A DNA stretch of 64,000 nt from an uncultured archaeon (GTDB lineage: Archaea > Asgardarchaeota > Lokiarchaeia > Sigyniarchaeales > SOKP01). Under the pieces are notes generated by a model. It saw nothing but the letters and a program-made list of their open reading frames with translations, was not told the origin of the DNA and made no database searches. A program made the translations under genes and the position numbers. The first letter of the stretch is position 1, and each line of letters opens with the position of its first letter. Positions 31,102 to 55,523 of the stretch are shown in pieces. The stretch lies in contig CAZDTP010000001.1 of the NCBI GenBank assembly GCA_964508365.1, positions 32,001 through 96,000 on the forward strand, written 5' to 3'.

Positions 31102-32781
31102 TTGAATGAACCCTTACAATTTATTTATAAAGAGGAGTTTTGGTACGTTAGTGCTTTCATAAACAGCGCTAATATTAACGCAGAGGCAAAAAGTAAGGAA
31201 ATCGAGGATCTTATCAAAACTAAGTTTAAAAATTTAGAGGAAAAAGATATATATCGAGAAGATCTTAAAACTGATATCTTGGAACTAATAAAACATATTT
31301 CTATTAAATGCAGTTGGGTTAAATGTTTATCTAATTTCCTCTATAAGGATGAAAATTCTGAGAGAGGCTTTAATACCTTAGGATATTTCCAATTTGAAGT
31401 TGAACACTATAAAGACGATCCGTCGAGTAAAAAATCGTTAAAACCCCTTATAATACAACAAGTTCCCTTTCTTGTTCTAAATATCCTTAAAGATTATAAC
31501 TATAAGTCTGGAAATGAAGGCATTCATTTTGATACTGAAAGCCCTATTTATGTGTTTATAACTTCTAACGAAAGCGAACCAAATAATATCGTCTGGAATC
31601 CCGATAATATCGAAAAATATAAGAAAGTAATTGCTTACTGGACTGAAATCTATTCAGGACAATGGGAAGATTATTCTGAAACATTACTTAACAAGAGAAT
31701 TGAAAATAATTTATCCAATCGGCTTTCAGAGCTACACTTCTTAAGAAGAAACTCTGGTTTTATTTACATGGCTGAGGAAAATTATGAAAAATTCTTTAAA
31801 TCCTACATGAAACAATATGTTATAGATCCTACCCCAAAACTTAGAGCTGTATTGTTTGTTTTACGCTCAATAAACGAATCGTTAGACTTATTGTTTCTAA
31901 AAACTCAATCACAAGCATTTCAAGGATTAAAAATAATAGAACAAAAAATTCGAAACTTAAGATTATTAAGAGGAATGATTCAAACTACTCTTAGCGCAAT
32001 ATATAACGAGCTAGATTATAATAGAAGACAACATTACACGAGCGTATTGAAACATCTACTAACTGAATTTGGAATAGAGAATATAGTAGAACGAATAAAT
32101 CAAAAGTTTAATTCAATTTACGATGTAATGGAAGACTTATATCATAAAAAGAGCGACGAAAACCAAGAAAGAACTGAAAGAGGATTAAATTTATTAAATT
32201 TACTTTTTGGAGCAGGAATCTTAGCCGATTTAGTGGGTGTTATTATGATTTGGCTAAATTTACAACAGGAAAATCTATTTACATCAATATTAAATGGTTC
32301 GATAGCAATTATAATTATAGGAATACTGGTAGCAACAATAGGATATTATCTGAACAACCGTATACAAATTAAAAAGGCTGAAATTGGAAAAACAGTTGAC
32401 GCTGTAATTGAGGATAACGCAGGAAATGTAATTTTAATAAAAAGAAAATATCCTCCCTTTCAAGACTATTATGCATTACCAGGAGGTTTTATAGAAAAAG
32501 GAGAAAGTGCGATTAAAGCGTTAGTTAGAGAAGTCAAGGAAGAAACTAATTTAGATGTGAAAATTCTACATAAAATTGGCCTATACACTGAAGAAGGACG
32601 AGATCCCAGAGGCGATATACATTCTACAGCTTATAAATGTTCAATTATTGGAGATATCACAAAAATGAGAAGTGGCGATGATTCTAAAAAAGTAGAGCTT
32701 TTACCTAAAAACCAGCTTAAGGACATTGAATTAGCATTCGATCACAAAAAAATATTAGAAGATGCTAATTTACTGAATTAA
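31102..32781 (+). CDS. CorA-like stalk/2TM membrane protein fused to a C-terminal Nudix (ADP-ribose pyrophosphatase-like) domain
   Basis: Intact Nudix box GGFIEKGESAIKALVREVKEETNL plus RDPRG and LAFDH. Preceded by a long helical stalk and two TM helices. Confidence 0.75.
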   Translation: MNEPLQFIYKEEFWYVSAFINSANINAEAKSKEIEDLIKTKFKNLEEKDIYREDLKTDILELIKHISIKCSWVKCLSNFLYKDENSERGFNTLGYFQFEVEHYKDDPSSKKSLKPLIIQQVPFLVLNILKDYNYKSGNEGIHFDTESPIYVFITSNESEPNNIVWNPDNIEKYKKVIAYWTEIYSGQWEDYSETLLNKRIENNLSNRLSELHFLRRNSGFIYMAEENYEKFFKSYMKQYVIDPTPKLRAVLFVLRSINESLDLLFLKTQSQAFQGLKIIEQKIRNLRLLRGMIQTTLSAIYNELDYNRRQHYTSVLKHLLTEFGIENIVERINQKFNSIYDVMEDLYHKKSDENQERTERGLNLLNLLFGAGILADLVGVIMIWLNLQQENLFTSILNGSIAIIIIGILVATIGYYLNNRIQIKKAEIGKTVDAVIEDNAGNVILIKRKYPPFQDYYALPGGFIEKGESAIKALVREVKEETNLDVKILHKIGLYTEEGRDPRGDIHSTAYKCSIIGDITKMRSGDDSKKVELLPKNQLKDIELAFDHKKILEDANLLN

Positions 32782-52265: not shown

Positions 52266-53570
52266 TTATTCAATTTCAATATTTAGTTTTTTGAAAATTT
52301 TATCAATCGTATCGCTAGCTATACTTTTCAAAATATCTTCTAAAGGAGCTAAAACTTCATCTCTTTGTGTTGTTCTATTGTTGCTAATTCTTCCCTCTGT
52401 AACCTCAATACCACTTTGCGCCCACGAGTCAAGATCATTAAACGTAAACCAAATATCTCGATAAGCACCCTCGGTGCCTCCATTTCGAGCTAACGGTTTT
52501 TCTATGATTGGAATTTCTGGATCCTGTAGATAGCACCAATCTAGTATTATCCACTCTAAATTTCGTTCTGAATCAGGGCGATCCGCTAAATAAATGCAAT
52601 ACGCGTGACCTCCTAATTCTGTGTCTGATGGTGCAAAGATAGGGTCTGCCATAACTTGGGCAGCACATACTTTTACTCTCCACGAAGGTATCCCTGCATT
52701 AATTAATAAGCTTGCAATTAAGATCGCTCCATCCTCACAATCACCAATCTCGGATTGAATAGCTTCAAAGGGAAATAACCAGAATTCAGGGCATTCTGAT
52801 GTGACATCGTCATATGTATACTTAAGAAAATTGCATACAAAATTTTGGATTGCTAACGCTGTGTCGTTGGGAGTGTCTTTTCTTAAATCGAGATGATTTA
52901 AGACATGCCATAGAATAGCATCGTTTTTCTTTATAAATGCTTTTACATCTACATCAATTTGTTTGTTATAGGATTCCCCCCTTAACGCTCGTCCAGTATA
53001 GATGATGGGGGCAGTGTCCCATTTATCATTCCAATAATCAGGTCCATATTCTCCATAATCTTTTTCAAATTGTTCAAACGGTTTGTAATTAGGAGTGATT
53101 GGTATTGTCGAATCTGGAGTCTCTTTAGTTGGTTGCTCTTTCTTAGGTATTGGCTTCTTTTTAACCTCTTCCCCTTTTTTAGGTACCTCTGCTAATCTTT
53201 TTGCTTCAGCAACCCAGTTTTCGATAGTTTTTATTGTAGGTACTTTTGTTAGGATTTTTGAATTTTCATTTTTTAATTGTTTTAACTTTTCAACAGTTGT
53301 TTTTGGATTTCGGTATGCGAATTCTTTAACAGAATCAATTCCAATAATATTTATTGCATTCGCTAGTTCCGGAGTAATCCCTACAATTCGCATTAAATCA
53401 GCATGTTCTTGCCATGTATCAAGGGTTTTCACAGCAACTCCTATGCTTCTCGCCAATTGTTTAATCTGATAGTAACTAAGAGAAAGTAGGTGTTCGACCT
53501 CCTTTATGCCGGCTTTCTCTAAAAGTTTGGCGTGTTTTGCTTCTAAACCAATAATTTCAATTAATTTCAT
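52266..53570 (-). CDS. DUF4332-like HhH domain fused to a transglutaminase-like cysteine protease domain
   Basis: N-terminal IIGL..HAKLLEKAGI / RIVGI..LANAI..IGIDSV repeats. Triad GDCED, GGHAY, LDW. Start moved from 53699 to MKLIEIIG. Confidence 0.75.
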   Translation of the reverse strand: MKLIEIIGLEAKHAKLLEKAGIKEVEHLLSLSYYQIKQLARSIGVAVKTLDTWQEHADLMRIVGITPELANAINIIGIDSVKEFAYRNPKTTVEKLKQLKNENSKILTKVPTIKTIENWVAEAKRLAEVPKKGEEVKKKPIPKKEQPTKETPDSTIPITPNYKPFEQFEKDYGEYGPDYWNDKWDTAPIIYTGRALRGESYNKQIDVDVKAFIKKNDAILWHVLNHLDLRKDTPNDTALAIQNFVCNFLKYTYDDVTSECPEFWLFPFEAIQSEIGDCEDGAILIASLLINAGIPSWRVKVCAAQVMADPIFAPSDTELGGHAYCIYLADRPDSERNLEWIILDWCYLQDPEIPIIEKPLARNGGTEGAYRDIWFTFNDLDSWAQSGIEVTEGRISNNRTTQRDEVLAPLEDILKSIASDTIDKIFKKLNIEIE

Positions 53571-53677
53571 TTCAATCCCTATTAAATATATTAATATTAA
53601 ATAAGAAATAATGAAAACATGAATTTTATTCTTTTCAGTGACCAAAATTTTTGGAGGAATATTATAATAGAAAAGAA

Positions 53678-53689
53678 AGTGGCGGGAGG
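53678..53689. repeat. 12-bp direct repeat copy (AGTGGCGGGAGG) of the tRNA-Leu 3' end
   Basis: Exact match to 54677-54688. Confidence 0.85.
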
Positions 53690-53809
53690 CATGTCTCAAG
53701 GTGAAGATTTTTTTATTGACTAAATAAATAAATTTTAAGCCTCTAAGAGTTTTTCAACTAAATTGAAATCATTTTATGTAAAAGACATGAATTTGATAAA
53801 GGAACCAAC

Positions 53810-54658
53810 TTGAATTCTAAATCAATCAGTTTTCATCCAAATATTAATGAGCTCTATTTTCAAAGAATAGATAACAAAGAAAAAGCATATTGGTTTGGCT
53901 TTTTACATGCAGATGGTTATTTAGACAGAGTGTCTAAAAATGTATTAAGATTAGGTATCGAAATTCATCAAAAAGATGAAATCTTAATAAACAGATTTTG
54001 TGAAACCCTTGGAATTGATTTTAAATACAAATCCTATAGAGAAAGAATTTGTCTTGGAAAAATCTTAAAAACAGTCTCTATTAGATTTATAAATAAACCA
54101 ATAATTAATGATTTAATAAAACATGGGTTCAAAAGGAATAAAGCAAAGATAATATCTTTTCCAAATTTAAAGACTAAAGAGATTAAGCTTGCATTTTTGT
54201 TAGGCTTTTATGATGGCGATGGAAGTCCAAAACCCCCAAGGATTTATTCAGGAAGTAAGAATTTTTTAGAACAGGTAAGGAGTGAATTTAATTTGAATTT
54301 TCAAGTTTTTGAAAAACTAGGGATAGGAAGATCATATTATATGAATTTGGGTAAAAATCTATACCTTAAAATGTTAAAAAATTATAAAGTTAGCTTACCT
54401 CGTAAAAGAATTGAATCACAATTCATATCTTACAAGGAAAAGATTGAACGTATAAAAGAGAATGCATGGCATGGGGGTAATAGAAGAAAATTAATGATTT
54501 CTGAAGATAAATTAAAAAAATTAGTATGGGAAATGCCTCTTTATGAAGTTGGTCAGAAATGTAATGTATCTGGAAATACTATTAAGAAGTATTGTATTAA
54601 ATGGGGAATAAACCTACCTCCTCGTGGTTATTGGGTAAAGGAATATAAAAGATCTTAA
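53810..54658 (+). CDS. Double-motif LAGLIDADG homing endonuclease with C-terminal HTH
   Basis: Motif 1 KAYWFGFLHADG, motif 2 KLAFLLGFYDGDG, C-terminal HTH LYEVGQKCNVSGNTIKKYC..LPPRGYW. Confidence 0.88.
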   Translation: MNSKSISFHPNINELYFQRIDNKEKAYWFGFLHADGYLDRVSKNVLRLGIEIHQKDEILINRFCETLGIDFKYKSYRERICLGKILKTVSIRFINKPIINDLIKHGFKRNKAKIISFPNLKTKEIKLAFLLGFYDGDGSPKPPRIYSGSKNFLEQVRSEFNLNFQVFEKLGIGRSYYMNLGKNLYLKMLKNYKVSLPRKRIESQFISYKEKIERIKENAWHGGNRRKLMISEDKLKKLVWEMPLYEVGQKCNVSGNTIKKYCIKWGINLPPRGYWVKEYKRS

Positions 54659-54692
54659 GGAGTAAAAAAGAAAAGGAGTGGCGGGAGGGAGA

Positions 54693-54721
54693 ATTCCAAT
54701 ATTAGGGATTTCCCTAATAAC
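54693..54721 (-). other. 29-nt tRNA intron at position 59/60 (T-loop)
   Basis: BHB: outer GGGAG/CTCCC, central TTCG/TGGA, bulges AA|G and AT|T, inner hairpin TATTAGGG/CCCTAATA. Confidence 0.88.
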
Positions 54722-54768
54722 TTCGAACTCCCGAAGGCCTTTGCCACTGGATCTTAAGTCCAGCACCT

Positions 54769-54806
54769 CTAATCGGTCTTGACCCTTCTTCTAAACCAAA
54801 AGACCT
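54769..54806 (-). other. 38-nt tRNA intron at position 21/22 (D-arm)
   Basis: Relaxed BHB: central GGTC/GATT, bulges AA|A and AG|A, inner helix GGTCTT/AAGACC. Removal restores GGTCAAAGGT. Confidence 0.85.
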
Positions 54807-54852
54807 TTGACCAGACTCGGTAATCCCGCCAAATTTTTATATGTTGATATAA

Positions 54853-55145: not shown

Positions 55146-55523
55146 TTGCCTGTTGGAATTCTTATAATTCGGTGGGATAATGAAATTGGTCCGATAAACG
55201 AAGGTTTTTATCCAGAAAACCTAAAAATAACAAATAACTTGCTTACACAAGTGTATTCTTCACATCGGTATCAAAGCTTAAAGCCAGGGTTCGCATCGAT
55301 AAGCTTAAAGAACAATAAAGTCGTTTCATTTTTTTCAGGAGTAGGCGACGACCATATTAGCGTTGAAAATTATGTCGTTGCGTTATTATTACGAAGGGAT
55401 GAAAAACCCAGCAAGTATCGAGAAATTTTAAAAACAATAGCTTCTGAAATACTCGACCAAACTCAAGATAGTAAATTTTTAAAGCTTCTCCCTAACCTCT
55501 ATAAAGATTTAGCTAAAATTTAG
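55146..55523 (+). CDS. Stand-alone longin/uDENN-like domain protein
   Basis: ILIIRWDNEIGP...GFYP start matches the (F/W)D...GP....YP pattern of uDENN/longin folds, followed by a beta-beta-beta-alpha layout. Confidence 0.55.
   Translation: MPVGILIIRWDNEIGPINEGFYPENLKITNNLLTQVYSSHRYQSLKPGFASISLKNNKVVSFFSGVGDDHISVENYVVALLLRRDEKPSKYREILKTIASEILDQTQDSKFLKLLPNLYKDLAKI

Follow-up and report, generated by a model that had tools for sequence, protein, structure and literature searches.

A probable free-standing homing-endonuclease element that carries its own tRNA end, at tRNA-Leu(UAA) of an Asgard archaeon

Introduction

How does a lone LAGLIDADG gene come to lie at the very end of a tRNA gene, between two copies of the last bases of that tRNA and with no integrase beside it? 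We asked this of the tRNA-Leu(UAA) locus of an uncultured archaeon of the Lokiarchaeia (Asgardarchaeota), within a stretch of 64,000 nucleotides (the window) that covers positions 32,001 to 96,000 of contig CAZDTP010000001.1. The genome to which it belongs, here G000, is assembled into 4.07 Mb on 149 contigs, with about 30% GC. All coordinates are those of the window unless a contig is named. Our answer is that positions 53690-54676, together with one copy of the repeated 12-mer, are probably a selfish free-standing homing-endonuclease element of about 1 kb that carries a substitute tRNA end.

An earlier note on this DNA, written from the sequence alone, had proposed a mobile, integrase-free cassette with a single LAGLIDADG gene at the tRNA 3' end, and had also proposed that this system spreads tRNA introns. 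The two proposals fared differently.

Results

The insert at tRNA-Leu(UAA)

The locus is marked by an exact direct repeat. The 12-mer AGTGGCGGGAGG is found at 53678-53689 and again at 54677-54688, with a spacing of 999 bp, and these are the only two copies in the whole assembly, both at the tRNA-Leu(UAA) locus. By chance about 0.03 matches are expected per window, and none of 100 shuffles contained two copies. Read on the minus strand, the 12-mer becomes CCTCCCGCCACT, which is tRNA positions 64-73 plus two trailer bases (CT). The features of the locus, from the downstream side of the tRNA inwards, are:

53678-53689, minus strand: distal repeat copy (12 bp), in which the native tRNA 3' end survives in displaced form; the native trailer and the promoter of a DUF4332 gene come next (alignment to empty sites)
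53690-53809, plus strand: 5' region of the cassette, with a probable promoter and ribosome-binding site (homologous in the filled sites G040, L102 and L103)
53810-54658, plus strand: LAGLIDADG homing-endonuclease gene of 282 amino acids (aa), with two motifs and a C-terminal helix-turn-helix-like tail (Pfam LAGLIDADG_3, alignment, fold model)
54659-54676, minus strand: T-rich trailer CCTTTTCTTTTTT..., supplied by the cassette and likely the terminator of the tRNA (unlike the native trailer of empty sites, CATTCTTTTCTATTATAAT)
54677-54688, minus strand: proximal repeat copy (12 bp), equal to tRNA positions 64-73 and CT (exact match, genome-wide count)
54679-54830, minus strand: tRNA-Leu(UAA) with two introns, its cassette-adjacent 3' exon at 54692-54679 and followed by the trailer (manual cloverleaf, in-silico splicing)
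54693-54721, minus strand: T-loop intron of 29 nt at position 59/60, resembling a bulge-helix-bulge (BHB) intron (missing from 18 orthologous alleles that read GGGAGTTCGAATCTCCC)
54770-54807, minus strand: D-arm intron of about 38 nt (in-silico removal)

Between the repeats lies a single open reading frame (ORF; 53810-54658, plus strand), which converges on the tRNA and stops 20 nt from the discriminator A73 (54679). The insert of about 1 kb has no integrase or recombinase, its one ORF being the LAGLIDADG gene, and the sole tyrosine-recombinase match of the whole genome is on a different contig (C17). Pfam finds no transposase domain in the insert, and its two ends (CCTTTTC... and ...GACATG) are not inverted copies of each other. 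On these two grounds, a transposon with target-site duplication was rejected. The description given in the earlier note was thus accurate as to the locus: a 12-bp direct repeat equal to the tRNA 3' end and beyond chance, a lone double-motif LAGLIDADG gene 20 bp from tRNA-Leu with no integrase, and a 59/60 intron with its 3' end only 4 nt away from that repeat.

The unspliced tRNA-Leu(UAA) is detected neither by ARAGORN nor by Rfam (at the gathering threshold and with E up to 10), because it holds two introns. After in-silico removal of both, ARAGORN returns an 85-nt tRNA-Leu(taa). The T-arm precursor is predicted to fold into a helix-bulge-helix-bulge-helix-like structure (-24.7 kcal/mol, z = -3.2). 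Orthologues of this tRNA were located in 36 of 40 genomes of the genus, and across the genus the D-arm intron is near-invariant. Between G000 and G040 it differs by one substitution and a 3-nt indel, while the genes flanking the locus are synonymously saturated in the same pair. This suggests that the D-arm intron is under a constraint that goes beyond splicing.

Filled and empty alleles

The cassette is absent from 26 of the 28 tRNA-Leu(UAA) alleles of the genus that could be read, the two occupied ones being G000 and G040. An empty site is seen in 17 of the 26 cassette-free alleles, where the DUF4332-transglutaminase orthologue comes next after the tRNA, within about 110-430 bp. The comparison of related genomes suggested in the earlier note therefore returned 17 genomes in which the tRNA leads to the DUF4332 gene without a cassette.

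The borders of the insert are sharp. When G047, G002 and G008 are aligned to the window, homology breaks inside the tRNA and restarts exactly at 53689, with 85-93% identity from there downward, which places the outer edge of the cassette at ...CATG, at 53690. G011, a genome that has the T-loop intron, aligns through the entire tRNA up to 54667. The empty sites read CCTCCCGCCACATTCTTTTCTATTATAAT, and the distal copy of the window reads CCTCCCGCCACTTTCTTTTCTATTATAAT and continues with TTCTTTTCTATTATAAT, as the empty sites do. Since the distal copy is joined to a native trailer of the empty-site type, it is the displaced native tRNA end. The copy in the working tRNA bears a different, T-rich trailer, which is part of the insert. 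Gene-less relatives have one copy of the 12-mer only; a second copy at 53678 without the gene would have counted against the proposal of the earlier note.

The same site is filled in G040, another species, with 76% aa identity and both flanks collinear, and in the metagenome contigs L102 (92% aa identity) and L103/L104 (86% aa identity). L103 retains a remnant of 10 nt, TCCCGCCACA, with the native trailer behind it; L102 and G040 have a mutated remnant or none. Given this decay, the distal remnant would fit a leftover without function.

The LAGLIDADG protein

The TTG start of the 282-aa ORF is kept in four homologous cassettes. The protein matches Pfam LAGLIDADG_3 (E 1.3e-6), as do all 14 aligned proteins. 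In the alignment with 13 homologues, the columns of the two motifs, KAYWFGFLHADG (residues 25-36) and LAFLLGFYDGDG (residues 127-138), are invariant or nearly so. The acidic residue that ends the first motif is D35 (D or E in the homologues), the corresponding D137 of the second motif is invariant, and the C-terminal helix-turn-helix-like tail is conserved as well.

A search of the PDB sequences with phmmer gave no significant match for this protein; only the fold search was informative. The AlphaFold (AF2) model built from the homologue alignment has a predicted local distance difference test (pLDDT) score of 87.5. Its best solved matches in Foldseek are bI3 maturase, I-AniI, PI-PfuI, I-SceI and I-DmoI, with probability 1.00 and E from 6e-8 to 6e-6. 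The predicted fold is a tandem alpha-beta-beta-alpha-beta-beta-alpha, as in the monomeric double-motif LAGLIDADG enzymes. Some homologues lie in long frames (560-1155 aa) and were suspected to be inteins; this was rejected, with no Pfam intein domain found in those checked.

Four orthologous pairs have ratios of nonsynonymous to synonymous substitution (dN/dS) of 0.17-0.30 (0.17 for G000 and G040), and the LAGLIDADG protein is thus under constraint. Among 300 Asgard genomes, the family is almost limited to the taxonomic family of the window itself (f1, 28 of 68 genomes) and to f17 (3 of 3), and most families have none. G000 also holds a decayed LAGLIDADG fragment with 5 stops (C10:75452-75823), located 122 bp upstream of tRNA-Ser(GCU) (75945-76057), a tRNA that carries a 30-nt T-loop intron.

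In terms of divergence, the synonymous rate (dS) between G000 and G040 is 0.88 for the cassette and from 1.35 to saturated for the flanks. The nearest relatives, G011 and G047 (flank dS 0.15-0.29), have no cassette. Taken together, the lower dS of the cassette and its absence from the closest relatives favour some horizontal movement, but within the closest cluster cassette and flanks diverge to a like degree.

Recurrence at other tRNA genes

The same layout recurs at other tRNAs. At tRNA-Thr(GGU) of G008, a gene 48% identical abuts the tRNA, and the 10-nt CCGGAGGCTT is repeated 1088 bp away, before the native trailer and a tRNA-Met. The tRNA-Thr(GGU) site is empty in G000 (contig C15), and it is filled without a remnant in G043, G299 and one Promethearchaeota metagenome-assembled genome. 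At tRNA-Lys(CUU) of G086, which belongs to a different genus, the 10-nt ACATGGCCCG (positions 64-73) is repeated 1126 bp away, across the gene. The junctions are sharp in all three cases and fall at tRNA positions 63/64 (Leu), 64/65 (Thr) and 63/64 (Lys). The expectation of the earlier note, that homologous LAGLIDADG genes would be found beside tRNAs with 3'-end duplications, is therefore borne out at tRNA-Thr(GGU) and tRNA-Lys(CUU). Together with the patchy occupancy and the empty sites, these other tRNAs also uphold its proposal of a mobile, integrase-free, single-gene cassette.

The 3' ends of tRNA-Phe(GAA), tRNA-Cys(GCA) and tRNA-Ala(GGC) also have close homologues converging on them, and others, intact in G019, G045 and G041, lie between tRNA-Ser(GCU) and tRNA-Val(UAC). 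In nearly all contexts read, the close homologues (at least 42% identity) are within about 410 bp of a tRNA, mostly convergent on its 3' end. By our estimate, only about 1% of the genome is this near to a tRNA, which puts the association far beyond chance. The distant homologues (35-40% identity, about 400 aa, with an N-terminal extension) mostly have no tRNA within 1.5 kb, as seen by a finder that misses some multi-intron tRNAs. The link with tRNAs is therefore confined to the close clade.

Mechanism and alternative explanations

The element sits within the 3' end of tRNA-Leu(UAA) at 63/64 and supplies positions 64-73 and a T-rich terminator, by which the tRNA is kept intact. The native end has been pushed about 1 kb downstream and survives as the distal 12-mer before the original trailer. 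The comparisons above show this insertion and its architecture, the recurrence at other tRNAs and the constraint on the protein; the nuclease activity of the 282-aa protein, its cut position and the route of homing are what we infer. The enzyme would cut cassette-free alleles in or near the T-arm/acceptor end, and the break would be repaired from a cassette-bearing allele, with the tRNA body as the left homology and the displaced end plus the downstream DNA as the right one. Such a repair would give the recipient the cassette plus anything between the cut and the cassette. The two repeat copies could also recombine and so delete the element precisely.

Several points weigh against this reading. 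With a site of 20-22 bp centred at 63/64, the proximal copy would differ from an empty intron-bearing allele only beyond +12, which leaves the immunity of the filled allele unexplained. Direct repeats of a tRNA end around foreign DNA are what tRNA-targeting integrases classically leave. WhiA, a regulator that is not a nuclease, appears at Foldseek rank 41 and has a similar layout, with a LAGLIDADG part and a C-terminal helix-turn-helix. Finally, in the cluster of G000, L102 and L103 the cassette diverges by 8-10%, roughly as much as its flanks. Judged from these divergences, an old vertical inheritance with repeated precise loss, instead of ongoing homing, is also possible.

Two other explanations of the insert were considered. 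One is that an integrase left it behind: a larger integrative element, or else a small one that a tyrosine recombinase moved in trans, would have recombined with the tRNA 3' end as attB, with the 12-mers as attL and attR and the endonuclease gene as cargo. The repeats at the tRNA end have that general signature, and the junction is at a constant position in three tRNAs. Nevertheless, we consider this very unlikely: the insert has no integrase and no terminal inverted repeats, the only tyrosine-recombinase match of the genome is on C17, and the repeats are only 10-12 bp and decay in other lineages as non-functional remnants would. The one-gene layout of about 1.0-1.1 kb is seen at three tRNAs with the LAGLIDADG gene as the only common content. 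The other explanation is a domesticated, non-mobile LAGLIDADG DNA-binding protein, such as a WhiA-like regulator or a factor of the tRNA locus, inherited vertically and repeatedly lost, with the repeat as the relic of one old event. The purifying selection seen in dN/dS, the C-terminal tail with WhiA among the Foldseek matches, and the similar divergence of cassette and flanks in the closest cluster would all agree with it. Against these stand both catalytic acidic residues, retained family-wide, the occupancy of 2/28, the multiple, site-variable and sometimes decayed copies with a patchy distribution across the phylum, and the related cassettes at different tRNAs with fresh target duplications; we regard domestication as very improbable.

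Introns and cassettes

A third possibility accepts a mobile element and extends it to the intron. Here the 59/60 intron, the substitute 3' exon and the endonuclease gene would move as one block, in a collaborative homing unit. The enzyme would make a 4-nt staggered cut over positions 60-63 of intron-less T-arms, the intron would split the target and give immunity, and a later loss of the cassette between the repeats would leave the intron behind, seeding T-arm introns. Some of the evidence has the right geometry. Compared with the intron-less G047, the block spans A59 to the distal C64, and only TCTC (60-63) is unaligned, as expected from a 4-nt stagger. At Leu, Thr and Lys, each of the 9 intact cassettes has a 59/60 intron beside it, and the junction is 4-5 nt 3' of the intron site in 3/3 tRNAs. 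T-loop introns also turn over between the closest relatives, with 100% identity over the 79 aligned nt 5' of the intron site. Moreover, a 2026 preprint leaves the arrival route of Asgard tRNA introns open, having found no link to the hallmarks of mobile elements, and does not mention LAGLIDADG genes (10.64898/2026.10.13.758758).

Other results speak against a single block. Eight relatives (G011, G012, G014, G015, G016, G017, G041 and G055) have the tRNA-Leu(UAA) intron without the cassette, at least 11 other tRNAs of G000 have a 59/60 intron with no cassette beside them, and homologous cassettes adjoin intron-less tRNA-Phe and tRNA-Cys. When cassette-bearing alleles are compared, no segment diverges more than the intron (72-88% identity; the ORF has 80-92%), and a cassette-type intron common to them is not evident. 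The T-loop introns of G000 and G011 have 9/29 positions that differ, which is within the neutral dS range. The association of introns with cassettes at three tRNA sites has P of about 0.04 with a base rate of about 1/3, before allowing for relatedness. Lastly, a second nuclease-like family, described below, brings an intron-less tRNA-Lys(UUU) end, while the displaced native half holds an intron. On balance, we find a collaborative unit of this kind rather unlikely.

The proposal that the system spreads the intron and that the intron gives immunity is thus not sustained in the form in which the earlier note stated it, with the intron present without a cassette in 8 relatives and cassettes present beside intron-less tRNAs. 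Nor are cassette and intron absent together, as the same 8 genus genomes have the intron only.

In a more general form, the cassettes would be a vehicle that changes the intron state of tRNAs: the block would home into the T-arm through a staggered cut at 60-63, and recombination between the repeats would later remove the gene and leave the intron. This too we hold to be doubtful. If true, it would explain in concrete terms how the T-arm introns that abound in Asgard tRNAs arrived there. Co-conversion of the intron state during homing is plausible from the arrangement of the alleles, and cassettes may change the intron state in either direction.

Introns at 59/60 are common in G000, where at least 13 of about 40 recognisable tRNAs carry one of 29-34 nt; one of these tRNAs adjoins an intact cassette and one a decayed copy. 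Many tRNAs of G000 hold further introns, and ARAGORN and the Rfam tRNA model fail on those with several. A foreign origin of the T-loop intron in G000 was considered from its 9/29 differences to G011, compared with 0/35 for the D-arm intron, and this contrast was rejected as evidence: the D-arm intron is unusually conserved and 9/29 is within the neutral expectation from dS. A family-wide DNA search gave few usable tRNA-Thr(GGU) loci for the association of introns with cassettes.

The tRNA-Thr(GGU) gene is also an example of intron turnover. In G000 (C15:40813-40935) it has a 30-nt T-loop intron and in G011 (C41:966-1070) it has none (L134 and L136), and the aligned 79 nt upstream are identical. 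The difference is a very recent gain or loss of an intron.

Relation to known systems

Organelles and phages are known to have free-standing homing endonucleases that bring a substitute gene end. In fungal mitochondria, mobile endonuclease ORFs bring a substitute gene end; Paquin, Laforest and Lang reportedly described in 1994 such an endonuclease ORF inserted in atp6 of Allomyces macrogynus. The likeness is close: a free-standing endonuclease gene at the 3' end of a conserved gene, a replacement end supplied, the native end displaced as a remnant, and neither an intron or intein as host nor an integrase. We found the same order, with the replacement 3' end beside the gene and the native end beyond it, at tRNA-Leu, tRNA-Thr and tRNA-Lys. 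Unlike in the fungal case, the target here is a chromosomal tRNA gene of an Asgard archaeon, the substitute end amounts to only 10 nt of RNA-coding sequence and a terminator, and the ORF is antisense to its target and not fused to it in frame.

In phages, collaborative (trans) homing is known from F-CphI and psbA of cyanophage S-PM2, and Bonocora and Shub are said to have described in 2009 I-TslI of T7-like phages, a free-standing endonuclease next to a group I intron without an ORF. As there, a free-standing endonuclease lies beside an ORF-less intron of a conserved gene, and the intron is a few bases from the element junction. The intron here differs in being a 29-nt, protein-spliced intron of the BHB type that is widespread in the genome without cassettes.

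With I-DmoI and I-PorI of archaeal rRNA introns and the intein PI-PfuI, the protein shares the monomeric double-motif LAGLIDADG fold, I-DmoI and PI-PfuI being among its best structural matches. Its gene, in contrast, is free-standing, and the protein has an extra C-terminal helix-turn-helix-like tail. Integrative elements that target tRNAs (tyrosine-integrase islands, SSV-type and pNOB8-type elements) also insert at the tRNA 3' end, restore the tRNA and leave a direct repeat. They differ from the present case, in which there is no integrase, a single nuclease gene and a repeat of 10-12 bp.

In the literature, we found no description of LAGLIDADG substitute-end cassettes at tRNA genes in archaeal chromosomes. 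In the genomes searched, members of the close clade sit at the 3' ends of six or more different tRNAs, in several Asgard genera. Such an element explains att-like repeats of tRNA ends that come without an integrase. It is also a source of natural LAGLIDADG enzymes that probably target T-arm/acceptor sequences, and through these enzymes the rapid gain and loss of Asgard tRNA introns becomes a question that can be addressed by experiment.

A second cassette family and neighbouring genes

A second cassette with the same layout is present in G000 outside the window, at tRNA-Asp(GUC) (C16:67441-68836; L147/L149). A convergent ORF of 384 aa (67532-68686) lies 21-25 nt after the tRNA, with no other ORF, and the tRNA 3' end, GGTGTGGGCGC, recurs beyond it, with 16/20 matches if extended into the T-loop. 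The 384-aa ORF has no Pfam match, and its single-sequence AlphaFold model has a pLDDT of 37. As a lead only, its atlas features resemble phage clusters of the DUF723/DUF4379/NUMOD homing-endonuclease-like kind (score 0.94).

Relatives of this ORF are found at tRNA-Lys(UUU), in L154 (G053:C181) and L155 (G014:C36), at positions of about 1360-1433 and 2415-2490. In both, the working tRNA-Lys(UUU) has no T-loop intron, and the displaced 3' half beyond the ORF (from about position 31) has one of 30 nt. Read in this way, the cassette-linked end seems to have removed an intron at tRNA-Lys(UUU) rather than added one.

Another repeat of a tRNA end in G000 is found at C25:22345-24245 (L148), where the last 10 nt of tRNA-Leu(CAA), TTCCCTGCAT, recur 1880 bp downstream. 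This is a candidate old insertion or a chance match; between the two copies lie an ORF of 122 aa, an aldolase gene of the DeoC/LacD family and a small zinc-ribbon ORF.

As for the genes that flank the tRNA-Leu(UAA) locus, the one at 52266-53573 (minus strand) encodes a DUF4332 (helix-hairpin-helix) domain fused to a transglutaminase-like core. The one at 55146-55523 (plus strand) encodes a protein of 125 aa that keeps 96-100% identity between species with saturated synonymous sites (dN/dS about 0.01).

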